A stretch of 54,611 nucleotides of DNA. Origin: an uncultured Candidatus Saccharibacteria bacterium. GTDB lineage: Bacteria; Patescibacteriota; Minisyncoccia; Phycocordibacterales; UBA5272. This document shows, in pieces, positions 4,601 through 52,266 of the stretch (positions within the stretch are counted from its first letter, which is position 1; each line of letters starts with the position of its first letter). The stretch covers positions 1 to 54,611 of the forward strand of contig CAYWTC010000001.1 in NCBI GenBank assembly GCA_964461165.1. The letters are read 5' to 3'. The notes under the pieces were generated by a model, which searched no databases, had not been told where the DNA came from, and saw only the letters and a program-made list of their open reading frames with translations. The translations under genes and the position numbers were made by a program.

Positions 4601-4913
4601 ACTACATCACTATAAACATCAGCTTATGATGTACAAACTTCTCGTAGAAAATTCTCGTGACTACGCTACTCATAGTGTCATACGTGGGTCACTTGAATTT
4701 GTAGAAGAAACAAATGAAACTGGTGGCATACAAGAGCTCGTGCTTCCGCTTACATACAAAGATGCCGCTCATGACCTGGTGCGATTCAAGCAGCTCGTAC
4801 ACGCAGTGTATACAAAAATAACAACGCTTGATTTCCCAGATACAAGTTCATACGAACCAACACTAGAGGGGATACAAGCATTCGAAGATGATCTGATCAA
4901 AGGAGTGGTATAA
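1602..4913 (+). CDS. UvrD/PcrA-type SF1 helicase fused to a C-terminal PD-(D/E)XK nuclease (AddA/RecB-like)
   Basis: Walker A is GPGSGKT. Other helicase motifs are DEFQD, VGDDDQAIYKFQGA and TENYRS. The C-terminal nuclease motifs are GKIDKI, DLKTGK and QLMMYKLL. The ORF track starts at 1584 (TTG); ATG 1602 is preferred. Confidence 0.85.
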   Translation: MEATFKDRYKALNTAQKRAVDTTDGPVMVVAGPGSGKTELLALRVGAILQNGTAKASSILLLTFTETAARNMRERLERLIGSDAYRVAIYTFHGFCTDIIGRYPEYFFEATHFRPASTLIQSEILQHIFEQLPHKHVLGGFHPERGYAYLKESQGRIQDIKKGGLTPQHFKELLQENEQAYTSLNKILARHLPERIGKDSSIAYETMATELQATQSNLGSMYAARIRQAISQAEETEKTTPLSTWKTTYTGKDDSGNRVFKDFLSLPKLFALGDVYELYQQALHKEGYFDYDDMILHVVEALQKNIPLRTELEELYQYIMVDEFQDTNNAQLLLVKSLSSNPVHEGRPNVCVVGDDDQAIYKFQGAEISNILSFRELYRDVEVIVLTENYRSTQKVLDFARAIVTQGVERLETTYTEIRKDLRAKNPHLEPGNIYTQSFSSQEEEYLYVAHEVSRLLAAGVSHREVAIIAREHRQLTKLLPYLDAHSIAYTYERKENVFDEPHVRELITLCDLLASISGTTFEKDYLLPTILAFPFWGIDRLSIWRIAEHAKSSNISWLETMLASTDTHISNIATFLIELGVASQTTPLEIILDNLIGSKEHVLIQDSEDDDEYQATPYTLNLHTTYRSPYKDYYFNKDLLQDKKSAYIHFLSSLSEFIKALREYREYEVLKVHDVMKFVQMHVDYNVPLTNKTSFAHNEESVSLITSHGAKGLEFAYVFIVSVNDDIWAGGRKGNKLTFPINIPLGSAGDTEDDFIRLFYVALTRARHTLYITHHASMLRFLQTSDLPDTDTPLLPIDSPELLASGLHIYHAPPFAQNERALLQKVIEGYMLSPTHLNNFLDLTKGGPLMFLEHNLLRFPQAKTASSVYGTAIHKALEEAHVYATTHKSAPPQDALITTFTKELHRGRLQDFETTKLRARGEKALKQYYDLNHTTFNGAHIVELNFAKQSVHLDGALLTGKIDKIIDYGDGTWGVMDLKTGKGFDAWEQSGMTSYDNIKLHHYKHQLMMYKLLVENSRDYATHSVIRGSLEFVEETNETGGIQELVLPLTYKDAAHDLVRFKQLVHAVYTKITTLDFPDTSSYEPTLEGIQAFEDDLIKGVV

Positions 4914-4942
4914 AAAGAAAGCAAGGCGCCGTGGCGCCTTGC
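4912..4942 (-). terminator. intrinsic terminator of cassette A (hairpin between convergent genes)
   Basis: Stem gcaaggcgc/gcgccttgc at 4921-4929/4934-4942. The A-run at 4912-4920 gives a U-tract on the minus strand. Confidence 0.6.
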
Positions 4943-4965
4943 GAGAAGGGTATGAACAGTCTTCC

Positions 4966-5331
4966 TCATGCAACCTTCAAATGCATGAGGAAATGGTCTG
5001 GAGGAACCACACCGGTTCTGGACCAGGTGTAGATCTTTGTCGCACCGCCGTGCTCCAGAAAGTCCTTGATAGTGAGAATCCCCACCTCAGCAAGTTTGCG
5101 CACCGTATACGATGACGCAAACACACCGATTCGGACAAGTTGAACGAAAATGTGATTCCAAAGCAACGCGCCCGCGCGGTCCACAGACGCCCTCATCTCT
5201 TTGATTTCAATGAGGGTAAGAGGCGACCACTCGCCTGTGCCAGTGGCAACTGACCAATCTGCAAGCAGCGCCGTCACACGGCCCATAGCAGTGTGAACTG
5301 ATCTCCGAATAGCCAGGTAATCGGCTGTCAT
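4966..5331 (-). CDS. hypothetical protein, 121 aa (GC-rich cassette A, gene 2)
   Basis: AAGGAG (5338-5343) lies 6 nt upstream of ATG 5331. The ORF follows the gene 1 stop by 18 nt. No family recognised. There is a weak helix-hairpin-helix-like stretch, TVRKLAEVGILTIKDFLEHG. Confidence 0.6.
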   Translation of the reverse strand: MTADYLAIRRSVHTAMGRVTALLADWSVATGTGEWSPLTLIEIKEMRASVDRAGALLWNHIFVQLVRIGVFASSYTVRKLAEVGILTIKDFLEHGGATKIYTWSRTGVVPPDHFLMHLKVA

Positions 5332-5348
5332 GACTAACTCCTTTTCTT

Positions 5349-6047
5349 TCAAATGATATTTCTCGTCGCAAGCGGCGACATCGCACGCAGCGCAATATAG
5401 CGCAGCCCTGTGACATGGCCAATGAGGGCAGCAACCTTTTTCTCGGACCTTGCACGCAGCATGTCAGTCACCATAAGGTGGTGACCGTCAGCGAGGCCTT
5501 CAAGCGAGATGTCTTCCAATCCCGGTTGACGCAGCACAAGATGTACCTTGCGCCGCAAGATATCAACCACTGCATCGAGATCATCTTGGTCGGGAGCATT
5601 TGTTTCTGCCTCATTGAGAGCGATCATGGCATGCAAGAGCGCCTGCAAAAGCTTGCTACCTTCCAAGGTTGAGGTTGGCACAACAGAAGCATTCTCGTTG
5701 TGCATTTCAAGCACCACAATTTTGCGCAGGTCGCGACTTGCCGACATGGCCATGCGGACTTGTTGGTACGGAGCATTGATGAAACCACGAAGCGTGGTCA
5801 CACCAACCCCTTGCTCAACCCTTGCCGCAATCAGCTTTGTCATACACCCGGTGAGGGCAATGTCAGATGCCTCACCATTCAAGGCAACATCGCGGGCATC
5901 CGCCATAACCTTGATCAAATCAATGAACTTGCTCACATCAATGAGTCTCATCGTGTTGGACCCTGAAAGCAGGATGAGTGCTTTCTTGATACCCCGATAC
6001 AGCGCAGCTGCAAAAGCCGCGTTTGATCCAATGAACGTCGTTGCCAT
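5349..6047 (-). CDS. hypothetical protein, 232 aa (GC-rich cassette A, gene 1)
   Basis: GGAGG (6052-6056) lies 4 nt upstream of the ATG. The region is GC-rich (36/60 at 5401-5460). No family recognised. Confidence 0.65.
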   Translation of the reverse strand: MATTFIGSNAAFAAALYRGIKKALILLSGSNTMRLIDVSKFIDLIKVMADARDVALNGEASDIALTGCMTKLIAARVEQGVGVTTLRGFINAPYQQVRMAMSASRDLRKIVVLEMHNENASVVPTSTLEGSKLLQALLHAMIALNEAETNAPDQDDLDAVVDILRRKVHLVLRQPGLEDISLEGLADGHHLMVTDMLRARSEKKVAALIGHVTGLRYIALRAMSPLATRNII

Positions 6048-6148
6048 AAGGCCTCCGGATTAGATTAAATGAAATGAAAAAAACAACAAAGAATAGCCAT
6101 ATACAACACTACAACACAATTGTCGTATAGTCAACGTTTTTAATCTCC

Positions 6149-6157
6149 TGATATACT
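6149..6157 (+). promoter_or_regulatory. extended -10 element (TGATATACT) of nuclease gene
   Basis: TGnTAnnnT lies 7 nt upstream of ATG 6165. No SD. Confidence 0.5.
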
Positions 6158-6164
6158 TATCGTC

Positions 6165-7022
6165 ATGGCAGATAAATACACCGCAGTGTGGGTATCACAC
6201 TCATCAATGGGAGACTTTCTTAAGTGTCCACGATTGTACTACTTACACAATATGTACAAAGACCCTCAAACAGGGCGCAAGATGTCTATAGTCACCCCAC
6301 ATATGTCGCTTGGTATCGCAGTACACAATGTGCTCGAGGGCCTTGCAAACTACCCAGCGGGTGAGCGTATGAAAAGGGATCTTCGTGCCACATTTGAAGA
6401 AGAATGGCTACACGTTGCGGGGATACGTGGTGGTTTTACATCAGAGACCGAAGAAGAGACATTTAAACTACGCGGCAAGGAGATGATTAATACCGTCATC
6501 AAAAATCCACGCTTTCTCACCAACAAACGAATTAAACTTCCGAAGGAAAAAATGAACCCAAACTTCTACCTCTCCGAGGACGATAACATCATTCTTAATG
6601 GTCAGGTGGACTGGATAGAATACTTACCTGACGACACACTTCATATTGTAGACTTCAAAACTGGTAAGCATGAAGAAAAAGAAGGTTCACTTCAGCTACC
6701 TATTTATCTCCTCCTCTGTAATGCGCTACAAAAAAGATCTGTCAGCAAAGCAAGTTACTGGTATCTCGAGAGTGATTCTGTGGTAGAGAAAGACTTGCCC
6801 GATATTTCCCAGGCGCGCCACGATGTCTACCAGCTTGCGATTCAAGTCAAAGAAGCTCGTGATAAAAATATATTTATATGTCCACGGGGAGATGCTGGAT
6901 GTATTCACTGCACGCCATATGAAAAAATTCTTCGATGGAGAAAGGATTCGTCGGTTGCCGGGGTAACATCTGTTGGTGTCGGGGGATTTAATCAAGATAT
7001 ATTTGTGGTGAACAATTCGTAA
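6165..7022 (+). CDS. PD-(D/E)XK nuclease, Cas4/AddB-nuclease-domain-like with 4-Cys cluster
   Basis: Nuclease motifs are GQVDWI, IVDFKTGK and QLPIYLL. The Cys pattern is CPRLYY at the N-terminus plus CPRGDAGCIHC at the C-terminus, typical of Fe-S Cas4/AddB nuclease domains. Confidence 0.8.
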   Translation: MADKYTAVWVSHSSMGDFLKCPRLYYLHNMYKDPQTGRKMSIVTPHMSLGIAVHNVLEGLANYPAGERMKRDLRATFEEEWLHVAGIRGGFTSETEEETFKLRGKEMINTVIKNPRFLTNKRIKLPKEKMNPNFYLSEDDNIILNGQVDWIEYLPDDTLHIVDFKTGKHEEKEGSLQLPIYLLLCNALQKRSVSKASYWYLESDSVVEKDLPDISQARHDVYQLAIQVKEARDKNIFICPRGDAGCIHCTPYEKILRWRKDSSVAGVTSVGVGGFNQDIFVVNNS

Positions 7023-7043
7023 AACACCGTGTATACTATATAT

Positions 7044-7448
7044 ATGAACTCACTCATTACATACTCATGGTATTCACAACTTATCAAACCAGACTGGGCA
7101 CCACCAGCATGGATCTTTGGTCCAGTGTGGGGCATTCTCTACACCATCATCGCTATTTCTTTTGGCTATGTGCTGTATCAAGCATGGAAAGGTAAGTTAC
7201 CCACGAAAGCACTGCTACCGTTTGCGCTTAACCTTCTTTGTAATATTGCATTTTCTCCTCTGCAGTTCGGACTTCAAAGCAACATACTAGCTGCGGTCGA
7301 TATCATACTTGTCCTCGGAACCCTTGTATGGTTTATGACGACCATCTGGAACAAATATCGATGGGTTGCACTTGTGAATATTCCTTACCTCCTCTGGGTA
7401 TCCTTTGCGACAGTTCTACAGCTTACTGTTACATATCTTAATTGGTAG
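7044..7448 (+). CDS. tspO: TspO/MBR tryptophan-rich sensory protein
   Basis: Five-TM protein with WYSQLIKPDWAPPAWIFGPVWGILY, characteristic of TspO. TATACT (7032-7037) lies 6 nt upstream of ATG 7044. Confidence 0.8.
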   Translation: MNSLITYSWYSQLIKPDWAPPAWIFGPVWGILYTIIAISFGYVLYQAWKGKLPTKALLPFALNLLCNIAFSPLQFGLQSNILAAVDIILVLGTLVWFMTTIWNKYRWVALVNIPYLLWVSFATVLQLTVTYLNW

Positions 7449-7975
7449 TACCGACGATAACATTCAAGAAAAGCACTCGTGCACGACGGCTTTCGCTGCG
7501 AATTCAAGCACCTGCACATATCACGGTAACGGTACCGAACCGTATCAGCATTGCTACGGCTGAACGTTTTGTTGAGAATCATAGAACGTGGATACAAGAA
7601 CACGTAGAACGTCTTAGTCTGCGAACTACCGTCCACATACCTTCACACACACAAAGTGAGGTCGCGGCGTATAAACAGGAGGCTCTTGTGTATATACAAA
7701 GTCGCCTCGCTCACTTTAACCAGACGTATCATCTTTCGTGGAACAATGTTACGGTAAAATCTTTGCGTTCACGATGGGGGAGCTGTTCGCAGAATAGAAA
7801 TCTATCATTTAGCTACAAGCTTGCTCTTCTTCCGCGTGAACTTGCGGATTATATTATTGTGCATGAATTATGCCACCTCAAAGAGATGAATCATTCACCA
7901 TCGTTTTGGAATCTGGTGGCGATAACACAACCAGAATACAAATCATACAGACAACAACTACGTTATATACACTAA
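7442..7975 (+). CDS. YgjP-like (DUF45/M48-related) metal-dependent hydrolase
   Basis: HELCHLKEMNHSPSFW (HExxH plus a downstream H). The TTG start overlaps the tspO stop. Confidence 0.75.
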   Translation: MVVPTITFKKSTRARRLSLRIQAPAHITVTVPNRISIATAERFVENHRTWIQEHVERLSLRTTVHIPSHTQSEVAAYKQEALVYIQSRLAHFNQTYHLSWNNVTVKSLRSRWGSCSQNRNLSFSYKLALLPRELADYIIVHELCHLKEMNHSPSFWNLVAITQPEYKSYRQQLRYIH

Positions 7976-8059
7976 ACTAGTTTTGCTTATTTTCTAGCAA
8001 TTATGTAGGATAGCGATGGACAATATTGTTCACCTTCTCAACACACAAGGAACTGAATT

Positions 8060-9169
8060 ATGTCAGCATATAGCGCTTCCGGGGTCAACTACCAGCAACT
8101 CGACCCGGCAAAGATCATTTTTCAAAATGCGGCGGCTGCAACCGAGCTGCTCACGAGAATTGAAGCTCTGACGAGGCCGCTCCCGTGGACACGTGGAGAG
8201 AGTTGCTTTCTGCATCGTATCGACGGGAGCGATCTCTGTCTTGCCCATGTACACGAGACACTCGGCACGAAAAACCTCGTGGCAGATGCCATGGAGCTGC
8301 TCACCGGCAGAAACTACTACCACGGCATCGGACAGGACGGTGTGGCCATGGTGGTAAACGACATGATCACCCTCGGGGCTCTGCCGATCTCAGTCGCAAT
8401 GCACCTCTCTGCGGGGTCCTCTGCCTGGTTCAAGGACTTAGACCGGGTTACCAATCTTGCACAAGGGTGGGCGCAAGCCTGTGTGTTCGCAGGAGCTACA
8501 TGGGCAGGCGGCGAAACGCCGGCACTGACAGACATTCTCATGCCAGATGTCTGCGAACTGTCCGGATCAGCTCTCGGTGTGGTGCATGAAGATCACATCA
8601 TGAACCCACTTCATTTAGAGCAGGGGGATGAGATGGTTTTCCTCAGCAACCCCGGCCTCGGAGCGAACGGGTTCACGCTTGCTCGCGAAATTTCATACCT
8701 TCTTGACGAAGGATATCTGACAAAGATCGACAACGATGGCACGACCTACGGCGAAGCCTTGCTCACACCAACGCCAATCTATGTATCTGCGCTGCGCAGC
8801 TTGCAACGTAACGGCCTCAAGCCTGTATATGGCGTCAACGTGACAGGGCACGGCATGTTGAAGCTGATGCGGGCGCCGCAGTCTTTCACCTACCGCGTGA
8901 CCGCTCTCCCAGTGAAAACACCCGCCGTGTTTGAACGTATCCAGGACGCGAAGAAGATTTCCAAAGAAGAAATGTACTCGACGTACAACATGGGTATCGG
9001 ATTCGTATTCTTTGTGAAAAACGGTGAGGCAGGTACCGCAGTAGACCTTCTGGCGAAGGCTGGCTTTGGTGCTTGGCGGGGCGGTTATGTTGGTAGGGCA
9101 GGCACCAAACAGGTAATCATTGAAGAGCTTGGGGTTGTATACAAAGGAGCTCAGCTCAGCATTCGTTAA
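8060..9169 (+). CDS. AIR-synthase (PurM)-related protein (GC-rich cassette B)
   Basis: 369-aa ORF with a PurM-superfamily layout (TLGTKNLVAD, VNDMITLGA, GGETP, NVTGHG, TYNMGIGF). AAGGAA SD lies 7 nt upstream. Region is GC-rich (34/60 at 8341-8400). Confidence 0.7.
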   Translation: MSAYSASGVNYQQLDPAKIIFQNAAAATELLTRIEALTRPLPWTRGESCFLHRIDGSDLCLAHVHETLGTKNLVADAMELLTGRNYYHGIGQDGVAMVVNDMITLGALPISVAMHLSAGSSAWFKDLDRVTNLAQGWAQACVFAGATWAGGETPALTDILMPDVCELSGSALGVVHEDHIMNPLHLEQGDEMVFLSNPGLGANGFTLAREISYLLDEGYLTKIDNDGTTYGEALLTPTPIYVSALRSLQRNGLKPVYGVNVTGHGMLKLMRAPQSFTYRVTALPVKTPAVFERIQDAKKISKEEMYSTYNMGIGFVFFVKNGEAGTAVDLLAKAGFGAWRGGYVGRAGTKQVIIEELGVVYKGAQLSIR

Positions 9170-9198
9170 CGTCAGACCAAGAATCTGACACAGCAAAC

Positions 9199-9228
9199 AT
9201 CGGCCGCGCTTGCGCGGCCGATTTTATA
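9199..9228 (+). terminator. intrinsic terminator after PurM-like gene
   Basis: Stem cggccgcg/cgcggccg (9201-9208/9213-9220) with loop cttg, followed by attttatatt. Confidence 0.7.
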
Positions 9229-9282
9229 TTACTTGCAAGAATAAATTATTGAGTAGTATACTCATATCTACAACATCATAGT

Positions 9283-9417
9283 TGTTATCAAGAGTGTGGA
9301 GAGAGATTTGGCTCTATGACCCACCAGCAACCCTCAGTAATGAGTAGGTGCTTCCAACCCCGAGACGGGGAAAGATAATTTTGTCTTTCTCTCCACGGGC
9401 TTGTGAGAGTTTTTTTA
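9283..9417 (+). promoter_or_regulatory. SAM-I (S-box) riboswitch with terminator expression platform
   Basis: Matches the SAM-I core: UUAUCAAGAG, GGAGAGA, GGCUC, UGA, GCAACC, GGUGC and AGAUAA closing P1. GUGGAGAG (aptamer) can pair with CUCUCCAC (9389-9396), which otherwise forms a terminator stem with gtgagag, followed by a T-run at 9410-9417. Sits directly upstream of metK. Confidence 0.85.
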
Positions 9418-9441
9418 TTTGTACTTAACACTTACCTCATC

Positions 9442-10380: not shown

Positions 10381-10403
10381 GGGTTTAAAACATCTAGTTA
10401 AAA

Positions 10404-10488: not shown

Positions 10489-10489
10489 C

Positions 10490-11498: not shown

Positions 11499-11702
11499 TA
11501 TGAGCTTTACGGTGGTCTTTTTATAGATATCACCAGGAACTATTTACATTATTTATAATGTGTGTTAGGATTGCTCGCAGGTTTGTACATTGAATCACTC
11601 CCGTCCGCAAGGATTGGAACTTGATGTGCTTGCCGACCTTTGCCCCTTAAACCGTCATATCGACGGAGAGGGGTTGTGATTCTACAAGGAAAAAGGAAAC
11701 AC

Positions 11703-12428
11703 ATGAACCCGAACCTGAAGACCTCCGCCGCCTTTCGCCAGAGCCTGATTTCTGGGGCAATTTTCGCGGCAGTTGCTGCGATCGTGACTGCTTCCGGCCA
11801 GGTGATGGCGGCGGCGGCCAACCCGGACACCACCGACAAAACCATGTCGCTGGCGGTTGGTCAGGCACGTACCGCACTGTCGGCGTTTGCTGACACCATT
11901 GCGCACTGCAAAACCGAGGAAATCGCCAAGGGCGATGCCTACGCCCCGATTGATCACACCCTGCTGACGCAGGACGTGATCGACAGCCTCGGCGAGGGCG
12001 GCTTTGCCAAGCGTGGCACGATGCGGTTGGTGATTACCTTCCTCCACAAGGAAGGTGAGCCCACTTTCCAGCGCGTCGAGGAAATCGCCAATGTGGCCCT
12101 CGGCAAGCTGACCCTTGCGCTGGACGAGATCGAAGTCGTTGGCAATGGCGACCAAGCAGGCATGCTTGGTGCCAGCCTGAAGTTCAGCCACGCAGTGGCT
12201 GGCATGATGGCAGACCTGACGGCAACGGCAACGCTCATTGCGCAGGCTGATCTGATTGCCAACGACTGGTCCTTTGTGCCTCTGGCGTCGGCACACGGTG
12301 TCATGACCACCAACCTGGTCGGTGGCATGCCGAAAACCGATGCAGGCATCGACGACATCCGTAGCAAGACGACGGATCCGGGTAACGTTGGCACTGCGCA
12401 GGCCGATCAGCTGGCCACGGCCACGTAA
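11703..12428 (+). CDS. hypothetical secreted protein, 241 aa (GC-rich cassette C)
   Basis: AAGGA lies 5 nt upstream of ATG 11703. Signal-peptide-like N-terminus (KTSAAFRQSLISGAIFAAVAAIVTASGQVMAAAA). Very GC-rich (40/60 at 11761-11820). Own terminator. No family recognised. Confidence 0.65.
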   Translation: MNPNLKTSAAFRQSLISGAIFAAVAAIVTASGQVMAAAANPDTTDKTMSLAVGQARTALSAFADTIAHCKTEEIAKGDAYAPIDHTLLTQDVIDSLGEGGFAKRGTMRLVITFLHKEGEPTFQRVEEIANVALGKLTLALDEIEVVGNGDQAGMLGASLKFSHAVAGMMADLTATATLIAQADLIANDWSFVPLASAHGVMTTNLVGGMPKTDAGIDDIRSKTTDPGNVGTAQADQLATAT

Positions 12429-12457
12429 TGCGGCCCCGGGGTTTCGATCTCCGGACT

Positions 12458-12484
12458 AGGCACCTCACTTGGGTGCCTTTTTTA
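12458..12484 (+). terminator. intrinsic terminator of cassette C
   Basis: Stem aggcacc/ggtgcct with loop tcacttg, followed by TTTTT. Confidence 0.75.
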
Positions 12485-14948: not shown

Positions 14949-15020
14949 CTTGATCTTGATCACACACTCATGTAGTGTAGAGGGTATCTGTTGCTTTACC
15001 GTTACAAGAAAGGAGTGAGT

Positions 15021-15383
15021 ATGGACCGACACGACATATATAGAGCCGCACTTCTTTCTTACACGCACAGTGTTGGCAAAAAGGAGTACGAACAAACTAT
15101 GAACGTTTTGTACCACGCAGTGTTCCTGTCACGATGTGGCCACGGACCAGGCGACACGACCGCGCTATGCCTAGCATTACCAATCATTCAAATCGTAGTG
15201 TTTGGTATCGCAGATCATGAAGTGCGGACAAATGGACAAAAGCTGGAAACATTTCTAGATCGACTACCAATGAAAGCAGTCGAATACATCTTTGGTGGAG
15301 ACGATATGTTTCGCATCGTACGTCGCTTCGAAGTCCAGTACAAATTCATCACTGCTGTCATCCCGCCATATCTAATGTACTAG
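15021..15383 (+). CDS. hypothetical protein, 120 aa (GC-rich cassette D)
   Basis: AGGAG (15011-15015) lies 5 nt upstream of the ATG. GC-rich (36/60 at 15121-15180). No family recognised. Confidence 0.55.
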   Translation: MDRHDIYRAALLSYTHSVGKKEYEQTMNVLYHAVFLSRCGHGPGDTTALCLALPIIQIVVFGIADHEVRTNGQKLETFLDRLPMKAVEYIFGGDDMFRIVRRFEVQYKFITAVIPPYLMY

Positions 15384-15409
15384 CGTCCTTTACGGGGCGC
15401 TCTTTTTAT
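15382..15409. terminator. hairpin terminator between convergent cassette D and RND genes
   Basis: Stem agcgtcc/gggcgct (one wobble pair) with loop tttac, followed by ctttttatt. Overlaps the RND gene stop codon. Confidence 0.55.
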
Positions 15410-20670: not shown

Positions 20671-20713
20671 CAGACCGTAATTATTAGCAAGCTAAGTGTT
20701 TAGAGATAACAGT

Positions 20714-20748
20714 ACCCCGAACCATGCCGGTTCGGGGTGTTTATTTTC
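20714..20748. terminator. GC-rich hairpin downstream of cassette E gene 2
   Basis: 10-bp stem accccgaacc/ggttcggggt. The T-rich tail is on the plus strand only, so the orientation is ambiguous. Confidence 0.5.
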
Positions 20749-20767
20749 TGCCGCAGATGTGCAGACC

Positions 20768-21112
20768 TTACTCCTGGGTAGTAACCTCAGTCTCGGGTGC
20801 AAGCATTCGAACTTCTTCAAACGTAGAGTCCTTTTGTCGCGTCGAGATATGAATTTCTCCCCAGCCGCACGACCGCACGTAGCTTAGAAAATCTGGATGA
20901 ATTACTTCCTCATTCAAGATTCCTTCGGTACTAAACAGTCGATACAAGCGTGTCGAGCCTTTTCGTGCGCTCACGATAATCATGACGGCAACTACCTTTG
21001 TGTTGCCGTCAACAGCCTCACGCACTTGGCTTCGAGTGGGGATGTGATACCCACTACAAGCACTACGGCAATCTCCTACACCGTTCGGTAATATCAACGC
21101 TAAGATTTGCAT
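20768..21112 (-). CDS. hypothetical protein, 114 aa (GC-rich cassette E, gene 2)
   Basis: AAGGAA (21121-21126) lies 8 nt upstream of the ATG. No family recognised. Confidence 0.5.
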   Translation of the reverse strand: MQILALILPNGVGDCRSACSGYHIPTRSQVREAVDGNTKVVAVMIIVSARKGSTRLYRLFSTEGILNEEVIHPDFLSYVRSCGWGEIHISTRQKDSTFEEVRMLAPETEVTTQE

Positions 21113-21187
21113 ATCTAAGATTCCTTTTATATATCACCCACCACAGATCAACCGAGGTACATAGTAAGTGAGTACGTATCGAAAGTC

Positions 21188-21219
21188 AAAGAAAAGAAAA
21201 ACACCGCCGAAGCGATGTT
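21188..21219 (-). terminator. intrinsic terminator after cassette E gene 1
   Basis: Minus-strand stem aacaucgc/gcgguguu with a UUCG loop, followed by uuucuuuucuuu. Confidence 0.65.
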
Positions 21220-21251
21220 TCAAACAGGTCGCACACTAGCGACACCCCAAA

Positions 21252-22091
21252 CTACTTGGGCGCGGTTGATCCTGGCACAAACTCCTGATGCCGAAACGCT
21301 CCAACAAGCCTGGCAACATAGACCGTCATATGCGCCAGCGCAAGCCGCGCCTTGACGTTCTCAGGGGCTCTCACAGCTGGCACAACATCTGCTTCGTAGG
21401 CGTCCCAATATGAGCGCGCCACGAACGTCACTGCGCGCTCGGTGCTCGGCTCTAGGTGCACCACGTGACAGTAGTTGCAGTCGTCATTTGCAGCTCGCGC
21501 TACACGCGAAGCTGTGCCCGGGATAAACGGGTCGAGTAGATCTTTCGTCACAACAACGGTGACCGTGTGCAACTTTCCGTTTGATTTGCCCCGCGCATCT
21601 ATCGCTATGACGTAGCGACTCGCCCCAGGAACCCTCATGATCTCTCGCGGGAGCTTCTGGAAGAGCTTACACAGACCTTCAGGTGACATGGTTACTGGGA
21701 GCGTGCCAATGGCGTACCCTTCAGAACCATCAACCTGAAAGCAGCCTTCCCAGTACGGGGTCACTAGCAAATCATCAAATGAAAGCTTGTCAGGTTTCTT
21801 ATCTGATGGTTTTTTTTCTGACGGTTTTACCCTGATGACAAAAGGGCGACAGCGCTCACCATCTTCGCCAACAAAAGATACCAGGCCGTCTTGGTAGAGA
21901 TCCGCAGAAGGAGCAAGAAACTGTTGGTCTAGTATGCGAAAAGCAGAACAAGCTGTACGCAGTACCTTGACCACCAGAACCCGCTCTTCTTGGCGAGAAG
22001 CAAAGAAAGAAAGCAGACTTCTCTGTAAACCTACCGAGAAGTCTTTCACTGAAAACCACGGAGTGAACGTGGTGCGAATAGTATCGCTCAT
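21252..22091 (-). CDS. hypothetical two-domain protein, 279 aa (GC-rich cassette E, gene 1)
   Basis: GAGG lies 6 nt upstream of ATG 22091 (the ORF-track TTG is at 22103). Lys/Pro-rich linker KPSEKKPSDKKPDK between two domains. GC-rich (36/60 at 21361-21420). No family recognised. Confidence 0.6.
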   Translation of the reverse strand: MSDTIRTTFTPWFSVKDFSVGLQRSLLSFFASRQEERVLVVKVLRTACSAFRILDQQFLAPSADLYQDGLVSFVGEDGERCRPFVIRVKPSEKKPSDKKPDKLSFDDLLVTPYWEGCFQVDGSEGYAIGTLPVTMSPEGLCKLFQKLPREIMRVPGASRYVIAIDARGKSNGKLHTVTVVVTKDLLDPFIPGTASRVARAANDDCNYCHVVHLEPSTERAVTFVARSYWDAYEADVVPAVRAPENVKARLALAHMTVYVARLVGAFRHQEFVPGSTAPK

Positions 22092-22441
22092 GGGGAACCT
22101 CAACTTTCTATAAGTAAGAGGGGGGTTAAAAATAGGACTCTTAAAAACTTATCCTACAGAGAAACCTAGGCAAAGTCAATTATGTAAAAATAAACCAGAG
22201 GCCTGAGAGGGGTGACCTCGTTCTCAAACAGCGCCAGTCTCTAAAGTTTTCTGCACGCGAATTGTTATACCGTGGGAATGCAAAGTTGTGATGATATATA
22301 AAGACAAGAGAGGACAAGGGTTTTTTAATATAGGTAATGTCGCACAATATATCTTTTACGACTATAAGGTCTTGGAATTATCCACAGGTCAAGCTCTATG
22401 CCTATGACTCATAGCTTCTAACTACGTGACCCCAACTACAC

Positions 22442-32050: not shown

Positions 32051-32084
32051 AAAAAATACGGGCGCACAGCAAGCTGCGCGCCCG
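32051..32084 (-). terminator. intrinsic terminator of cassette F
   Basis: GC-rich stem cgggcgc.ca/tg.gcgcccg (32059-32084, one mismatch), followed on the minus strand by UAUUUUUU. Confidence 0.6.
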
Positions 32085-32099
32085 ATACGTAGCACCCCG

Positions 32100-32441
32100 C
32101 TACTTGCCCTGCTCTTTCTTGTAAGGCAACAGCGTGGCCGTAACCACACCTGCGACGCGACGTATGAAGATCGTATCGCGAGGATACAGCTGCCAGTGGA
32201 CGGATACCAGCCGTCCGTTCTCAATTTTGGCAAGAGGCTCACGCCCTGCCACCTCGAACATATCAAGGCACTGCTCATATTTCAAAGGGTGCCCCACGCG
32301 CTTGCTAGCGCCCATGCAGGTGTCTCCGGGTGCAACCTCGATCACACTGATCAAGGTTGGAGCGAGCACAACATCGGCCTGCACAGCCGAGGTCGCACAG
32401 ACGAACAAGAGTGCGGTAACAGTAGAAACGAACTTGCTCAT
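32100..32441 (-). CDS. hypothetical small secreted protein, 113 aa (GC-rich cassette F)
   Basis: AGGAG (32448-32452) lies 6 nt upstream of the ATG. Signal peptide MSKFVSTVTALLFVCATSAVQA. GC-rich (34/60 at 32161-32220). No family recognised. Confidence 0.6.
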   Translation of the reverse strand: MSKFVSTVTALLFVCATSAVQADVVLAPTLISVIEVAPGDTCMGASKRVGHPLKYEQCLDMFEVAGREPLAKIENGRLVSVHWQLYPRDTIFIRRVAGVVTATLLPYKKEQGK

Positions 32442-32489
32442 GGAAGTCTCCTTAGGTGAGCGTTAAGCCAGAATAGGCGTGATTATATT

Positions 32490-32510
32490 ATACTACTTTT
32501 ACAGTAGTAT
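32490..32510 (-). terminator. AT-rich hairpin downstream of aspS
   Basis: 8-bp stem atactact/agtagtat with loop tttac. Weak tail. Confidence 0.35.
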
Positions 32511-32528
32511 GTCAAGTTTCCACCTGCC

Positions 32529-34170: not shown

Positions 34171-34209
34171 ATAGTATGCAAGATATATTGTACACAAAGG
34201 AGCCCTTTT

Positions 34210-34506
34210 ATGGACCTAGTAAAAACGACGTGGGTGGCGATCCTTACGGACACCGACGAAGAGTCACTGCTTAATTTCTCTGAGCTACTCATACTGCGAG
34301 CTGTGCGACAATGCTTGAGTATCTCGGTGGTCATGTATGACAACGTAGCAGACGCACGTGTAGGAATACAGGTCCGAAAGCCATTCGTAGTGTCGATCAC
34401 TCCTGACCTACGCCCACAGGGTAATGAGGGTATCGAGAAGTGGTCGGGGCTGGATCTCCTGAATACCACCTCGGAGCTCAAGACCCCCCGCCATCGTACT
34501 CGGTGA
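34210..34506 (+). CDS. hypothetical protein, 98 aa (GC-rich cassette G)
   Basis: AAGGAG (34197-34202) lies 7 nt upstream of ATG 34210. No family recognised. A competing antisense ORF (34158-34517) has no SD. Confidence 0.5.
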   Translation: MDLVKTTWVAILTDTDEESLLNFSELLILRAVRQCLSISVVMYDNVADARVGIQVRKPFVVSITPDLRPQGNEGIEKWSGLDLLNTTSELKTPRHRTR

Positions 34507-34666
34507 CTATACATCAAAGCAGTTACGTGGCGCGCTCATCAGGCGTCGAATAACCGCTCAGCCGCAGGCGATAATCAACCCCCACTCCGCAGTTGCATAG
34601 GCAGAAGCAGTACTCACGCAGCTGATGTGACCCGGCAGCAGTAAGAGTACTGCAATCAAGGCAAAC

Positions 34667-34690
34667 GTACCGCTTCGGCGGTACTTTTTT
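34667..34690 (+). terminator. intrinsic terminator closing cassette G
   Basis: Stem gtaccgc/gcggtac with a TTCG loop, followed by TTTTTT. Its tail overlaps the trpS stop codon on the other strand. Confidence 0.7.
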
Positions 34691-41690: not shown

Positions 41691-41726
41691 GAAACCGCCA
41701 CAGGTATTCTGGGATACCTGTGGCGG
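41691..41726 (-). terminator. intrinsic terminator of cassette H
   Basis: 13-bp stem ccgccacaggtat/atacctgtggcgg, followed on the minus strand by UUUCUUCUU. Confidence 0.7.
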
Positions 41727-41732
41727 GATACT

Positions 41733-42050
41733 TTACGCGGCTGTGTGCCGTTCATTGGTCCGGCGAGCCACGCGCCGCATAAAAAGTACGACGTGGCTCT
41801 GTGTGCTATTCACGGCTTGACGTGCCTTTGTTTCGCGAGGAATTTGATCACTCTGGTCAACAAAGTGCCCGTATCCAACCCAGCCGTGAGCGCGCGTCTC
41901 GTCGCGAGTCACCCTGGGTTTGTCTGCCAAAGCTGCCAGTGCGCTTACGTTGACACAACCACGCTCCACAGAACCAGGACACTCCCCTGCGCGAATGCGA
42001 CTATGACACTCGGCATTATTGACATACGGTAATGAACAACTATCGGACAT
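41733..42050 (-). CDS. hypothetical Cys-rich protein, 105 aa (GC-rich cassette H)
   Basis: AAGGAG (42056-42061) lies 5 nt upstream of the ATG. GC-rich (39/60 at 41881-41940). Four Cys in the first 32 residues. No family recognised. Confidence 0.55.
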   Translation of the reverse strand: MSDSCSLPYVNNAECHSRIRAGECPGSVERGCVNVSALAALADKPRVTRDETRAHGWVGYGHFVDQSDQIPRETKARQAVNSTQSHVVLFMRRVARRTNERHTAA

Positions 42051-42080
42051 GCTATCTCCTTCATAAAGTCCGTTTAAAAT

Positions 42081-42112
42081 AAAACCAGCCCTTTTACCTC
42101 AGGGCTGGTTTT
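42081..42112. terminator. bidirectional-looking hairpin upstream of cassette H
   Basis: Stem aaaaccagccc/gggctggtttt, with A and T runs on both sides. Confidence 0.6.
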
Positions 42113-42251
42113 TGGCTACACGATGAGTATAAACAAAAATCAACCCTGAGAAGAAGGGGTAAACAGCGTCCACACGCGCTTAATATTTTGTCGCTGGTTG
42201 ATTAATGTCATCATTACTATCTAATGTAGCAAAGGAAGAGCATGGATGTCA

Positions 42252-42281
42252 AGAAAATAAAAACATCTCCCGGAGGAGATG
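42252..42281 (-). terminator. intrinsic terminator after rpsI
   Basis: Minus-strand stem caucucc/ggagaug with loop UCCG, followed by UUUUUAUUUU. Confidence 0.7.
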
Positions 42282-46444: not shown

Positions 46445-47839
46445 TCAACGATTAGGGATAGTTTCTTTCACGGTTATGTGACTCATGTCGTCAGGGAATG
46501 AGCTCACCCAGGTAGGAAATACGTCACGGCTCGCCTTCTGAATCGAAGGTAGACCCTTTAAGAGCGAGTTAAACTCATCTTTGTTCTTACCTGCGAGTAG
46601 ACGCTTTAATTGATCGTGATCAATGTTCCAAATAATGCGCGGATTACCCTCAACAAGGACGTCTATCTTTGTGTCGGTACTGATATTCGCAGTATTTTTA
46701 ACGCTGTACTCTACACCATCAGTATATGCAAGTCGAACACTTTCATTAGCATAGTTTCGTGCTGATTTCGCAAAAGCTTGTGCCAGTTCTCCACTACGAG
46801 CAAGCACCATGTACCCTGTCGCTTGTACAGAATATGTACTTTCGTCGCCCGAAAGAATTGCTTTTTCATTATCTTCAAAATATACACGTACTGATGATCG
46901 GAATGGAGTGTATCCGTCTTGCGTTACTTTACCAAGAGAGGCACGAAGCTCCTCAGTTAACTCAAGAGCAAGCTCATCTTTTGCGGCATTAACATCAGAG
47001 AGACTCGCAAGAGATTTTGTTCCTGATGCTCCACCAGATACAGAACCCTTAGATCTCGCGAAGAAGCCATCATACTGTGGCGACCCCTTAAACCCTGGGA
47101 TAGTAAAGTCTGTCGGCTCTGTGTTGTATTCACTACCATAATCATCGGCGTATATTGTCACCTCCACACTACCCGGAACATCCCCTTTCTTTCCAGGGAT
47201 AGTAATTGACTGATTAATACGATATATCTTGCCAGAGGCCGACTCAAAACGGGTATTTTTAATAAGACGTTGAGGTTCTGTGCTGTATTTATTGTAAACA
47301 ATGATTACACCTGAGGCTTTTGCTTCTACTTTTTTCGTTTCAGAAAGTTGTAGTTTTTTTGTTTTTGATGCTGAGGATGTCGCGAGAACAAAGTGAATAT
47401 CACCAACCTCTCCTTCTTTTACAAGAGAAAATGTCTTGCCGAGGTTAATGTCATCTGTGTATTGTGGCGTAATAGTAATCGTAGCACTATTAAATACATA
47501 TGTAGTAAGGAATACTCCTATGACAATACACGCAGTAGCTGCAATAAATATCCATGTACGCTTGTTAGTATCATCTGGATACCGCGTTCGAGGGTCACGA
47601 TACATTGACCTATCAAGGACGTCGCTTCGCATACCTGCACTTTCTTTGCTTCCTCGACGAGGATACATGTCCATAGCATCAATATCACGACGAACACGCA
47701 CACCGTTACGTGGTATATGAACAGCATCTTTACTATCTTCTTCGAGATCTGTATAGTCGCGACGTTCAAACCGTTCTACTCGAGCGGAAATATCGTTATT
47801 AGATTTTGAATGAGAGTATGGTTTTCGTATGTCCTGCAT
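46445..47839 (-). CDS. hypothetical single-pass membrane protein, 464 aa
   Basis: Charged N-terminal tail, one TM (WIFIAATACIVIGVFLTTYVF), large extracytoplasmic beta-rich region. Backbone-like composition. No family recognised. Confidence 0.6.
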   Translation of the reverse strand: MQDIRKPYSHSKSNNDISARVERFERRDYTDLEEDSKDAVHIPRNGVRVRRDIDAMDMYPRRGSKESAGMRSDVLDRSMYRDPRTRYPDDTNKRTWIFIAATACIVIGVFLTTYVFNSATITITPQYTDDINLGKTFSLVKEGEVGDIHFVLATSSASKTKKLQLSETKKVEAKASGVIIVYNKYSTEPQRLIKNTRFESASGKIYRINQSITIPGKKGDVPGSVEVTIYADDYGSEYNTEPTDFTIPGFKGSPQYDGFFARSKGSVSGGASGTKSLASLSDVNAAKDELALELTEELRASLGKVTQDGYTPFRSSVRVYFEDNEKAILSGDESTYSVQATGYMVLARSGELAQAFAKSARNYANESVRLAYTDGVEYSVKNTANISTDTKIDVLVEGNPRIIWNIDHDQLKRLLAGKNKDEFNSLLKGLPSIQKASRDVFPTWVSSFPDDMSHITVKETIPNR

Positions 47840-48182
47840 ACCGATGAGTTAGATCTTTACTATTCTCAAGTGTAACATGTGGGGCTACTCCATCAGTGAA
47901 GAACTGTGTATAAGAAGCGTTCTGAATCACTCCATGTAACCACGTTTGATATCGCGGAGTAAGTAAGCGTATATCTGTTGGTATACGGTCGTGAAGCGAT
48001 ATGAATTCAAGAAGATATTGCACGCCATCTAAGAGCTTACTTCCAGCGATACGTCCCAAACCTTCTGCTTCCATATGCCGTATACCATGTGGGTGAGTAT
48101 GCGCGACAATAACTTCATTATCGACAACATAGTACATATGCGTAGATTGATCACCAACAGAAATACTAAGGAATCGAGACAT
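47799..48182 (-). CDS. hypothetical protein, 127 aa
   Basis: Overlaps the downstream 464-aa ORF by 41 nt in a different frame. No family recognised. Confidence 0.45.
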   Translation of the reverse strand: MSRFLSISVGDQSTHMYYVVDNEVIVAHTHPHGIRHMEAEGLGRIAGSKLLDGVQYLLEFISLHDRIPTDIRLLTPRYQTWLHGVIQNASYTQFFTDGVAPHVTLENSKDLTHRYAGHTKTILSFKI

Positions 48183-48220
48183 GGGTATAGTTTATAGGTA
48201 ATGGTTGCTAGTTACTAGTG

Positions 48221-48261
48221 GATACAAAAGAGCGACGCTTACGGCGTCGCTCTTTTGTATC
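48221..48261 (-). terminator. long perfect hairpin after 126-aa gene
   Basis: 18-bp stem gatacaaaagagcgacgc/gcgtcgctcttttgtatc. No clean U-tract. Confidence 0.55.
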
Positions 48262-48269
48262 CTAAAACA

Positions 48270-48650
48270 TTAAAAATCAGACCACTCGTCGATCTTCCAT
48301 GTACCATTTTGTTTATGCGCAAGCTCTAACCCTGAGCATCCAACATTCTCGTCCATCTCTTCCTGTGTTGTGGCGTCCTTATTACAATTTATCCCGACTA
48401 ACATTCTTGCTTTTACTACTCCGTAACTTTTTTCAAAATCTGTTACAGCAATAACCAAATCATCCTTCGGTGTAAGGTTAAACTCTTCTATAAAAATCGG
48501 TCGCAGCTCTCTTTCGTATACTTTATATGTAACAAACCGTACTGGATTAAGTGTATTAGTGAGGGCTTGGGTTTTTAAATAATATAAATACCCCTCAAAG
48601 GCGGCAGCGATGATAGCAACGATAATTATGACTTTATATATGTTTTTCAT
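48270..48650 (-). CDS. hypothetical membrane-anchored protein, 126 aa
   Basis: N-terminal TM (VIIIVAIIAAAF). TGGTATACT (48657-48665) lies 6 nt upstream of the ATG. Confidence 0.55.
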   Translation of the reverse strand: MKNIYKVIIIVAIIAAAFEGYLYYLKTQALTNTLNPVRFVTYKVYERELRPIFIEEFNLTPKDDLVIAVTDFEKSYGVVKARMLVGINCNKDATTQEEMDENVGCSGLELAHKQNGTWKIDEWSDF

Positions 48651-48680
48651 GTTAAAAGTATACCACCTTCCTGGGTTGGC

Positions 48681-51309: not shown

Positions 51310-51315
51310 TTTTTG

Positions 51316-51324
51316 ATTATACCA
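51316..51324 (-). promoter_or_regulatory. extended -10 element (TGGTATAAT) of alaS
   Basis: Perfect TGnTATAAT, 6 nt upstream of ATG 51309 on the minus strand. Confidence 0.5.
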
Positions 51325-51361
51325 GAGGGAGACACTAGATTCTAGGTACTAGATTTTAGAT

Positions 51362-51387
51362 AAAACAAAAACGCATCCGTAGATGCG
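51362..51387 (-). terminator. intrinsic terminator of cassette I
   Basis: Stem cgcatc/gatgcg, followed on the minus strand by UUUUUGUUUU. A second hairpin, gaacctc/gaggttc, lies at 51398-51414. Confidence 0.6.
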
Positions 51388-51424
51388 CCTATAGTAAGAA
51401 CCTCAAAGAGGTTCGTTTTGATGC

Positions 51425-51697
51425 TTAACTTTTGGGTGCCAGGTCTTTCAACTTTTGAGCGTCCTCCTCGGGTAGTCCAAACCCCGTATGGTACAGCACA
51501 TACCCTTTTTCAAACAAGACATGAGCCTCTTCGGGGGTTACGCTATGTTCGCCCGGTAATGGACCTTCGAATTCTGTATGTCGAACCCCAGAACATAAAC
51601 ACACAATGAGCGTATAACGAACATGTCGCCTCTCGTCGTGCGCATACGTCATATCAAGGGTTCTCTCACCGCTACAACGCCTACACATAAGTGTCAT
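51425..51697 (-). CDS. hypothetical protein, 90 aa (cassette I)
   Basis: AAGGAA (51704-51709) lies 6 nt upstream of the ATG. CxxC near the N-terminus plus a CLC motif. No family recognised. Confidence 0.5.
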   Translation of the reverse strand: MTLMCRRCSGERTLDMTYAHDERRHVRYTLIVCLCSGVRHTEFEGPLPGEHSVTPEEAHVLFEKGYVLYHTGFGLPEEDAQKLKDLAPKS

Positions 51698-51865
51698 AGT
51701 GTCTTCCTTTCTGAGAACAACTCTTGATTCTTAGTGTAGCAAATAAAAAAAGACGCCTCGACCCATAGGATAAAGACGTCAACCAACAAAGGTTTGGCAA
51801 CCGCGTATAGTTGGATTGGTATTGTAACACGATAAGCACACACCTGTCAAGAAGCCTTCTGGTAT

Positions 51866-51895
51866 ATAAAAAACGAGCCCGGAGGCTCGTTTTTG
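51866..51895 (-). terminator. bidirectional intrinsic terminator of cassette J
   Basis: aaaaaa-cgagcc-cgga-ggctcg-ttttt. Confidence 0.75.
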
Positions 51896-51908
51896 CGCAG
51901 TTTGTGGA

Positions 51909-52181
51909 TTATGCTTCTGCCATATCTCCTTCTGCAAATGCGACGGCTAAGGCCTTCTGAAACTCCGCATGGGAGCCAAACGTTGACCTAGCTGCCGTGC
52001 CAGCTTTTGTATGTACTGGCTTTTTTGTTTTTTTGAACCACGTTCTGGGTGGTGGTTCTGGAATATTATTCCACCATGCACTCGATAGTGCGCGGCGCTC
52101 AGGTATCTGTATCTTCCTTTTGTGGACGACACGACCACCTGAGACTTCCAGAATATCCACTTCGGTTGCCAAACATAGCAC
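51909..52181 (-). CDS. hypothetical basic protein, 90 aa (GC-rich cassette J)
   Basis: GAGGAG (52188-52193) lies 6 nt upstream of the GTG start. Pro/Lys-rich centre (PEPPPRTWFKKTKKPVHTK). No family recognised. Confidence 0.5.
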   Translation of the reverse strand: MLCLATEVDILEVSGGRVVHKRKIQIPERRALSSAWWNNIPEPPPRTWFKKTKKPVHTKAGTAARSTFGSHAEFQKALAVAFAEGDMAEA

Positions 52182-52266
52182 AGGAAACTCCTCTTTTTAT
52201 CTCCCCAGCCGGAATACTGGGTGATTCACATTCTACAATATATAAAAAATTAGTCAACGAATATGT

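Follow-up and report, generated by a model that had tools for sequence, protein, structure and literature searches.

What are the small genes that sit singly between the conserved operons of a streamlined bacterial chromosome, mostly unlike any named family and often richer in G+C than their surroundings, and how did they come to be there? This question is raised by the first 54,611 nucleotides (nt) of contig CAYWTC010000001.1 (GCA_964461165.1), the whole of which is referred to below as the window. An initial annotation of the window had described ten such cassettes, named A to J and holding twelve open reading frames (ORFs), each preceded by a Shine-Dalgarno (SD) sequence, within a low-GC housekeeping backbone. 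The aspartyl-tRNA synthetase (AspRS) of the window is up to 90% identical to that of metagenome-assembled, Paceibacteria/Nomurabacteria-type genomes of the candidate phyla radiation (CPR), and the gene order around it (RpoA-L17-L13-S9-GrpE-DnaK-DnaJ-...-TrpRS-AspRS-GH18-ScpA/B-...-MraY-FtsW-MurG-GluRS-M23) is kept in dozens of such genomes. Based on this identity and conserved synteny, the window can be assigned to a Paceibacteria/Nomurabacteria-type CPR bacterium. The cassettes are best read as old, moron-like accessory genes that were acquired horizontally and then inherited vertically, a history held here with slightly better than even confidence. The evidence for their architecture, their age and their composition is taken in turn below.

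Composition and expression signals of the cassettes

The cassettes and their ORFs are listed here with lengths in amino acids (aa) and with predicted promoters and terminators; GC3 is the GC content at third codon positions. The ORF bounds first given for A1, C, D, E2 and G have been corrected, and G proved to lie on the plus strand and to be truncated by frameshift.

4914..6164, minus strand: cassette A, a two-gene unit; promoter-like TTGACT-17-TAGTGT at about 6106-6134, terminator 4921-4942
5349-6047, minus strand: ORF A2, 232 aa, SD CCGGAGG
4966-5331, minus strand: ORF A1, 121 aa, SD AAAGGAG
7976..9228, plus strand: cassette B; ORF 8060-9169, 369 aa, divergent PurM-like; terminator 9199-9222; GC3 0.61
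11543..12478, plus strand: cassette C; promoter 11543-11571, leader of about 130 nt, ORF 11703-12428 (241 aa), terminator 12458-12478
14949..15405, plus strand: cassette D; ORF 15021-15383 (120 aa), SD AAAGGAG, terminator 15382-15401, GC3 0.47
20711..22179, minus strand: cassette E, two separate units with promoters and terminators (GC z 3.9)
21252-22091, minus strand: ORF E2, 279 aa; promoter 22151-22179, terminator 21198-21221
20768-21112, minus strand: ORF E1, 114 aa; promoter 21161-21189, bidirectional terminator 20711-20741
32058..32515, minus strand: cassette F; promoter 32487-32515 (TTGACA-17-TATAAT, 12/12), ORF 32100-32441 (113 aa), terminator at about 32058-32084, GC3 0.66
34197..34690, plus strand: cassette G; ORF 34210-34506 (98 aa), a truncated copy; shared terminator 34667-34684
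41695..42252, minus strand: cassette H; promoter 42223-42252, ORF 41733-42050 (105 aa, four N-terminal Cys), terminator 41695-41726
51369..51850, minus strand: cassette I; promoter 51821-51850, ORF 51425-51697 (90 aa, CxxC and CxC motifs), terminator 51369-51390
51866..52257, minus strand: cassette J; promoter 52230-52257, ORF 51909-52181 (90 aa, GTG start, basic), SD AGAGGAG, terminator hairpin at about 51869-51894

The backbone has a GC content of 0.429 and a mean GC3 of 0.36 (standard deviation 0.05). Each cassette was compared with 2000 length-matched backbone windows, none of which was as GC-rich as cassettes A (0.523, z 4.3), B (0.548, z 5.7), C (0.612, z 7.6), E (0.506, z 3.9), F (0.558, z 4.0), G (0.534, z 3.5) or H (0.553, z 3.6). 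The description of all ten cassettes as GC-rich thus holds for these and is at best marginal for D, I and J, whose values are given where the history is weighed. The excess lies mainly at third codon positions, as cassette GC3 averages 0.55 against the 0.36 of the backbone (Mann-Whitney p = 3e-7).

The cassettes differ from the backbone in their translation signals as well. A predicted anti-SD duplex of -5.2 kcal/mol or stronger lies 3-8 nt before the start of 12/12 cassette ORFs, while about 1/47 backbone genes is SD-led, and duplexes reaching -6 kcal/mol precede 8/12 cassette ORFs vs 1/47 backbone genes (Fisher p = 2e-6). Both parts of the original observation, an SD before every cassette ORF and a backbone mostly lacking one, are therefore borne out. 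Ribosomal RNA, and with it the 16S 3' end expected to carry a CCUCC anti-SD, is absent from the window (Rfam) and from every compared locus. Conversely, a -10 box with at least 5/6 matches ends 4-14 nt before the ATG in 19/47 backbone genes and in 0/12 cassette genes; random positions show this placement at a rate of 4.5% (p = 5e-14 for the backbone excess), and the modal distance is 6-8 nt. Examples are found at 20656-20690 (MarR), at 51310-51330 (AlaRS) and at 48651-48670. The box is TATAAT-like, often in the extended form TGnTATAAT, and all 19 genes that have it lack an SD. Many backbone genes are thus apparently leaderless, as the -10 box stands just before the start codon and the SD is absent. 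The window also encodes, at 53370-54467, YchF, a protein described as promoting translation of leaderless mRNA (PMC12641178).

A -35/-10 promoter of its own is predicted at every cassette, with match scores of 12/12 for F, 11/12 for I and 10/12 for J and H, and the promoters of these four rank among the best matches in their own 20-kb stretch. The strongest terminator-like sites within 4500-22500 all close cassettes, and the terminators of H and I were also found. Such hairpins are not unique to cassettes, since backbone operon ends carry terminators too (e.g., 37885-37921), and the earlier picture of a private GC-rich hairpin for each cassette stands as to presence and not as to exclusiveness. 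As predicted, then, each cassette would be an autonomous unit of promoter, leader, SD, ORF and terminator placed between conserved genes. Because every cassette has a predicted promoter and the backbone looks leaderless, the contrast lies between two complete expression architectures.

This split generalises to 26 related loci, in which the same start-picking rule was applied to junction-family genes, that is, those occupying the junctions between backbone genes, and to backbone orthologues. There, 31/44 junction-family genes are SD-led vs 36/328 backbone orthologues (p = 9e-17). Since junction-family genes are SD-led across the clade, an SD is no marker of foreign origin, and the initial suggestion that it betrays an SD-using donor has to be given up. 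The other junction families in these loci lie only 0.01 to 0.02 in GC above background, and GC-richness would appear to be something added onto the SD-led class mainly in the near lineage of the window. In the literature searched, no description was found of a split in CPR between leaderless conserved genes and SD-led accessory genes.

Several cassettes show features of their own. The C protein is Ala-rich and helical with an N-terminal hydrophobic helix, and its gene reaches a GC3 of 0.74. Its AlphaFold2 (AF2) model, predicted without alignments, is a helical bundle with a mean confidence (pLDDT) of 56 and had no Foldseek match in the PDB at an E-value of 0.001 or lower; the E2 model, also made without alignments, is unusable (pLDDT 32). 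The F protein has a hydrophobic N-terminus and two Cys, and by inspection the hydrophobic N-termini of C and F read as a membrane anchor or signal peptide. The H and I proteins are Cys-rich and J is basic, likewise by inspection. Relative to the 143-aa homologue in the sister-species contig L175 introduced below, G carries a single C added to a run of C, a change of TGG to TAG and a 2-nt insertion, so that about 34507-34650 is its decayed 3' part; these truncating lesions explain the GC-rich tail that extends to about 34650. A CheY-like receiver domain was considered for the G family and dropped, as no Pfam match was found at E-values up to 1.

The SD of cassette I is GAAAGGAA, and the cassette is presumed to be coding from its architecture. 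The leaders of H (about 170 nt, within 42051-42252) and I (about 110 nt, within 51698-51850) each begin at a good promoter and, ahead of the SD, end in a hairpin of terminator type that has a U-run; that of H is nearly invariant in a near strain and in the sister species. These leaders may be attenuators or small RNAs; neither had an Rfam match. Structured RNA was also considered as an explanation for the GC-rich islands and set aside, as Rfam at its gathering threshold reported only a SAM riboswitch in the window, and scans by E-value over the regions of H, I/J and E returned noise only. There is no tRNA or tmRNA in the window.

Age, relatives and junction occupancy

The age of the cassettes can be judged from a strain that is 97.9% nucleotide-identical to the window (L081) and from contigs of a sister species in sample DRR274969 (L087, L091 and L175). 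The strain, an independent assembly, carries A2 and B in place, and the sister-species contigs, also assembled independently, have A1, A2, B, C, D, F, G and H, each at the junction that it occupies in the window; E1 and E2 proteins occur at 97-98% identity in further samples. Strains of the two species are contained in the samples ERR2985255-77, DRR274969 and DRR2137xx. Synonymous divergence (dS) and its ratio to nonsynonymous divergence (dN/dS) relative to the sister species, as Nei-Gojobori estimates, are as follows, with protein identities.

33 backbone genes: dS mostly 0.05-0.19 (L17 0.03; AspRS 0.60), dN/dS median about 0.04, identity 96.6-100% (MliC 90%)
A1: dS 0.155, dN/dS 0.43, 87%
A2: dS 0.495, dN/dS 0.32, 72%
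B: dS 0.173, dN/dS 0.30, 90%
C: dS 0.555, dN/dS 0.36, 69%
D: dS 0.145, dN/dS 0.20, 94%
F: dS 0.313, dN/dS 0.21, 86%
G (5' part): dS 0.142, dN/dS 0.35, 89%
H: dS 0.163, dN/dS 0.32, 91%

Cassettes A to H hold real protein-coding genes, and in the eight genes compared purifying selection is 5-10 times weaker than on their neighbours. As these eight genes occupy the same junctions in the sister species, they were present before the two species split. The transfers, if such they were, are not recent: A1, B, D, G and H share the dS of the backbone (0.14-0.17 vs about 0.11).

An artefact, whether GC-richer contaminant DNA joined in a chimeric assembly or chance ORFs in non-coding GC-rich elements, is scarcely credible in view of this conservation. 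The contig does come from a metagenome-assembled genome, ORFs arise more easily in GC-rich DNA, and I and J have no comparative support. Against this, at least three other sequencing projects yielded independent assemblies with the same junctions, and assemblies from other samples exclude the chimera, which the initial annotation had wished to see checked, for A, B, E, F and H. Moreover, differences are concentrated at third codon positions (for H, whose ORF is intact in L091 and L092, 13/23), dN/dS is below 0.45 for all eight genes, and the cassettes have no Rfam matches.

Synonymous divergence lies above background in A2 (0.50), C (0.56), F (0.31) and AspRS (0.60, with neighbours at about 0.10). 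AspRS (32529-33938, minus strand) lies between cassettes F and G, and its dS looks like a homologous-recombination import spanning the gene. Judged by the dS of these four genes, recombination is clearly indicated as active at cassette junctions.

Only B matches a curated family (Pfam AIRS and AIRS_C), as had been noted at the outset. It reaches 170 bits against the purM equivalog TIGR00878, below the cut-off of 236, and is a member of a distinct family of about 368 aa named 'AIR synthase-related', being 44-49% identical to more than 3800 homologues, several of them named as Patescibacteria proteins. Among metagenome copies of the family, those with low-GC flanks form one clade and those with high-GC flanks another, and the B of the window sits on a long branch, with about 45-47% identity to either clade. 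In 50 metagenome loci, the GC of the gene is on average 0.05 higher than that of its flanks, and the difference rises to as much as 0.24 in low-GC contexts. For example, in Nomurabacteria-like contigs (L083 8001-9116, L100 6001-7095, L097 and L098) it forms an island of GC 0.55-0.56 and GC3 about 0.64, with the SD AAGGAGG, in flanks of 0.32-0.36.

For the other cassettes, relatives are few. An exhaustive phmmer search with the concatenated A1, A2, C, D, E1 and E2 proteins against 1.84 billion representative proteins gave exactly six matches, one near-relative cluster per protein at 67-98% identity. A word-indexed protein search with the same concatenate had returned nothing, a false negative given the close homologues that phmmer found; for F such a search gave only two close relatives. 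PADLOC gave no defence-system match for the cassettes, and in PHROGs only B had one. Exact-sequence look-ups with the F, B and EamA proteins of the window gave no record.

Further relatives of F and G were recognised by position. Homologues of F sit at the AspRS-GH18 junction in 11 related loci; they are small and SD-led, are 32-42% identical where neighbours are 80-90% identical, and share a hydrophobic N-terminus, which reads as a signal peptide, and a G-x-x-C...C core. A homologue of G in L022 agrees with it in junction and orientation (E 3e-10 with the full-length sister protein as query) and has an SD and a background GC3 of 0.35. As these positional homologues are barely recognisable, ORFan status stems at least partly from fast divergence.

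The initial annotation had proposed the host bacterium of the episymbiont as an obvious donor. Recent transfers from such a host, higher in GC and SD-using, would account for cassettes whose GC and SD differ from the backbone, yet this is very improbable. The cassettes are in the sister species with backbone dS; for A1, A2, C, D, E1 and E2, the 1.84 billion representative proteins hold homologues in near relatives only; an SD is typical of junction genes clade-wide; other Paceibacteria have homologues of F and G at the corresponding junctions; and B is about equally distant from the two metagenome clades of its family.

Occupancy of the junctions, filled or empty, varies across the 26 related loci; nevertheless, none of the eight genes that could be tested is missing from the sister species. 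The proposal that the junctions might be empty in relatives is therefore answered in two ways: the AspRS-GH18 junction of F is empty in L017 and L018, while the junctions of the eight genes are occupied in the sister species. Related genomes (L001-L028) also fill junctions that are empty in the window, namely DnaK>DnaJ, DnaJ>SSS, SSS>SPFH and S9>GrpE. The fillers are recurrent SD-led families of hypothetical proteins, such as one of about 250 aa that occupies the DnaK-DnaJ gap of 13 loci, and their recurrence points to a set of permissive insertion junctions shared by the clade.

It had also been suggested that the cassettes form one co-functioning dispersed set. A regulon for a single process would suit their uniform design of promoter, SD and terminator and their similar -35 boxes, TTGAC(A/T), but it is improbable, as nothing links the 12 proteins. 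They are heterogeneous in kind, share no motif beyond generic promoter elements and match no defence system; G is being lost alone while others persist, and sister genomes fill the junctions independently of one another.

History of the GC excess

The direction of compositional change was read by comparing the window with the near strain, the sister species serving as the outgroup by which each substitution was polarised. The backbone shows 115 GC>AT vs 117 AT>GC changes, which gives an equilibrium GC of 0.436 against a current 0.432, and this equilibrium disposes of a genome-wide shift towards GC as an explanation. In the cassettes there are 29 GC>AT vs 20 AT>GC changes, which put the equilibrium GC at 0.434, below the present value of 0.526; the ratio of 29:20 matches the 59% expected under backbone bias with decay. 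As the cassettes share the substitution bias of the backbone, decay from a GC of about 0.53 towards 0.43 is implied, which suggests that they are decaying slowly towards backbone GC. At the estimated rates the half-life of the GC offset is several times the divergence of the sister species, and such persistence fits the presence of the cassettes in both species.

Relaxed selection was considered as the sole cause of GC-richness and rejected, as fast-evolving genes of backbone type stay AT-rich. An MliC-like lipoprotein gene (12523-12876, plus strand; dN/dS 0.32) and a polymerase fragment have a GC3 of 0.34-0.37; as both remain AT-rich, relaxed constraint alone does not raise GC. MliC and three hypothetical genes (46445-48650, minus strand) are lineage-specific or fast-evolving, of backbone composition and without SD.

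A horizontal origin is the best reading because of the patchy distribution of the cassettes, the six proteins without homologues beyond the genus and the substitution bias that implies decay; from these we infer both the horizontal origin and the kind of donor. The compositional offset also extends over whole units, each equipped with predicted promoter, SD and terminator. The units would have entered the lineage ready-made, in the manner of phage morons, from a GC-richer, unsampled gene pool, probably other Patescibacteria or their mobile elements and not a sampled host. Genomic islands and gene transfer, mostly among Patescibacteria, have been documented (PMC12455944). Entry would have preceded the split from the sister species and been followed by vertical inheritance, with A2, C and F occasionally replaced by recombination. 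Since then, the proteins would have evolved 5-10 times faster than their neighbours and the genes drifted slowly towards backbone composition. The cassettes would thus be accessory transcription units, single-gene except for the two-gene A, at permissive junctions between housekeeping operons, and their products lineage-restricted small proteins, weakly held by purifying selection and individually dispensable, as may be seen in G, which is decaying in the genome of the window. Of the original view of these genes as horizontally acquired, the dispersed placement, atypical composition and own signals have stood up and a foreign origin is plausible, whereas a host donor finds no backing and the SD is no marker; the transfers, if such they were, would be old.

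Several observations weigh against horizontal acquisition. Three cassettes, D (0.460, z 0.8), I (0.484, z 1.4) and J (0.487, z 1.6), show no clear GC excess, and I and J lack comparative support altogether. Of the differences in composition that had been foreseen, that in GC3 is present; after GC normalisation, the dinucleotide signature deviates from the backbone in A (p 0.003) and C only. The cassette substitution signal consists of 49 changes (p 0.25 vs 50:50) and is compatible with equilibrium. Neither a donor nor a mobility gene came to light in the partly annotated backbone and the cassettes, nor did a tRNA target or flanking repeat: the cassette proteins lack mobility domains, and no flanking repeats, insertion scars or shared boundary motifs were detected above chance, a 10-nt match at H being two similar promoters. 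A phage origin of B was considered and rejected, as the B family has no relatives in IMG/VR. Islands of the B family, with a GC of about 0.55 and the SD AGGAGG, occur in several unrelated low-GC genomes with flanks of 0.32-0.46 and long branches between them, which fits a maintained trait as well as repeated transfer. Finally, F and G have homologues of ordinary GC in more distant relatives, so that their GC-rich state needs an extra step, either allele replacement or lineage-specific enrichment. Allele replacement at the junctions plausibly reconciles the GC data.

The same observations lend themselves to another account, in which the cassettes are resident, fast-evolving accessory genes whose GC-richness is maintained or generated in the lineage and is no foreign relic. 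Its cause would be GC-biased gene conversion, the junctions being prone to recombination, or else selection acting on leadered mRNAs with an SD, and rapid divergence would have made the genes ORFans. This account, possible though unlikely, draws on the positional homologues of F and G, which are 32-42% identical amid neighbours of 78-90%, and on their GC3, which for F is 0.57-0.70 in the window, L069 and L001 against 0.34-0.42 in seven other loci and for G 0.60-0.63 in the lineage of the window vs 0.35 in L022. It is also favoured by the B family, which keeps a GC of about 0.55 across long branches, by the counts for B alone (14 GC>AT vs 13 AT>GC), by the recombination indicated at the junctions by the dS of AspRS, A2, C and F, and by the dinucleotide signature, which in most cassettes is that of the backbone. 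Yet the pooled polarised counts give the cassettes the backbone bias and so imply decay, and B equals the recombining A2 in GC-richness although its dS is normal, so that GC does not follow dS. In addition, the junction families of sister genomes are SD-led and only 0.01 to 0.02 above background in GC, and the step from a GC3 of 0.36 to as much as 0.74 seems large for biased gene conversion.

In a broader form of this idea, the CPR clade runs two expression regimes according to gene age or class, and a process specific to the class keeps or makes accessory genes GC-rich. This is a rather doubtful proposal, but if true, composition would mark expression class and not foreign origin, and the ORFan islands of CPR genomes would be resident, hyper-evolving interaction genes.

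Horizontal acquisition followed by vertical inheritance thus remains the preferred history, and the cassettes matter for more than their origin. In tiny CPR genomes, the differences between lineages, presumably including dealings with the host, sit largely in unannotated small genes. Here the accessory genes form a cleanly separable class, recognisable from a unit that brings promoter, SD and terminator with it, from composition and from a protein evolutionary rate 5-10 times that of the neighbours, and the class sits at recurrent permissive junctions of a strongly syntenic backbone. This offers a practical rule for choosing accessory or effector candidates in Paceibacteria genomes. F and G show, in addition, that positional homologues can become ORFans by diverging fast. 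Should transcript mapping confirm it, the leaderless and SD-led split would be useful for understanding translation initiation in CPR and how new genes are expressed in an SD-poor organism.

Neighbouring features and known systems

Other features of the window lie close to the cassettes or stand out in composition.

9282-9381, plus strand: SAM riboswitch RF00162 (64 bits), directly after the terminator of cassette B and upstream of S-adenosylmethionine synthetase (about 9442-10380)
10481-11498, plus strand: LexA/S24-like gene followed by a 143-aa Y-family polymerase fragment, ending just before cassette C
33952-33998: AT-rich, near-perfect palindrome of 47 nt with a 20-bp stem, in the promoter region between the divergent G and AspRS genes; its end lies 14 nt upstream of the start of AspRS
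52918-53364, minus strand: Nudix gene, GC 0.33 and GC3 0.21, within an AT-rich island (52600-53400, GC about 0.32)

The polymerase fragment covers positions 73-139 only of the IMS profile, and its acidic motif reads by eye as NE where DE is expected. The sister species has the same arrangement of LexA/S24 and polymerase fragment, and cassette C may stand in place of the lost remainder of an SOS mutagenesis cassette. The palindrome could be an operator or terminator. The Nudix island is a compositional anomaly opposite to that of the cassettes, and its gene may be another acquired one.

Among known systems, the cassettes most readily recall the phage morons, reportedly described by Hendrix and colleagues about 2000. 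Like these, they are independent units of promoter, ORF and terminator, set in either orientation between two conserved genes, unlike their surroundings in composition and usually ORFan and dispensable. Unlike morons, they lie in a bacterial chromosome, among ribosomal, chaperone, aminoacyl-tRNA synthetase and cell-wall genes, and not in a prophage; no phage genes are found near them, only B matches a PHROG family, their GC exceeds that of the backbone, and their inheritance across species is stable. Integron gene cassettes are similar in being small, mostly ORFan, single-gene modules, each ending in an inverted repeat. Here, however, the modules are dispersed and have their own promoters, and their 3' hairpins are short GC stems with T-runs and not attC sites. 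Terminator-type hairpins and the lack of an array and of an integrase in the partly annotated backbone rule integron cassettes out.

Regimes poor in SD or rich in leaderless genes are familiar from Bacteroidota and from leaderless-rich Actinobacteria and Deinococcus. The window resembles them in that most genes lack an SD and many have a -10 box directly before the start codon, and differs in its sharp split within one genome between conserved genes that are leaderless or SD-less and accessory genes that are SD-led.

Two further comparisons bear on the category of the cassettes. The islands and islets of Patescibacteria are likewise accessory DNA ascribed to horizontal transfer in streamlined CPR genomes, with many hypothetical proteins (PMC12455944). 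The cassettes differ from them in being single-gene islets of 0.3-1.4 kb, judged to be below the usual size for island predictors, in having no mobility genes found in the partly annotated backbone, and in being tied to SD-led initiation against a leaderless backbone. Fast-evolving, taxonomically restricted genes, in turn, share with the cassettes the lack of homologues beyond the genus and a dN/dS 5-10 times the genome norm, and the barely detectable positional homologues of F and G at family depth and the decay of G also fit this class. Orphans that were born or had diverged in place would not be expected to have a strong compositional offset together with complete, foreign-looking expression signals, and MliC and the hypothetical genes at 46445-48650, which evolve fast but are of backbone type, have kept the GC of the backbone. 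The cassettes are therefore best placed between these two, as small genomic islets, or individually transferred genes, combined with the character of fast-evolving, taxonomically restricted genes.

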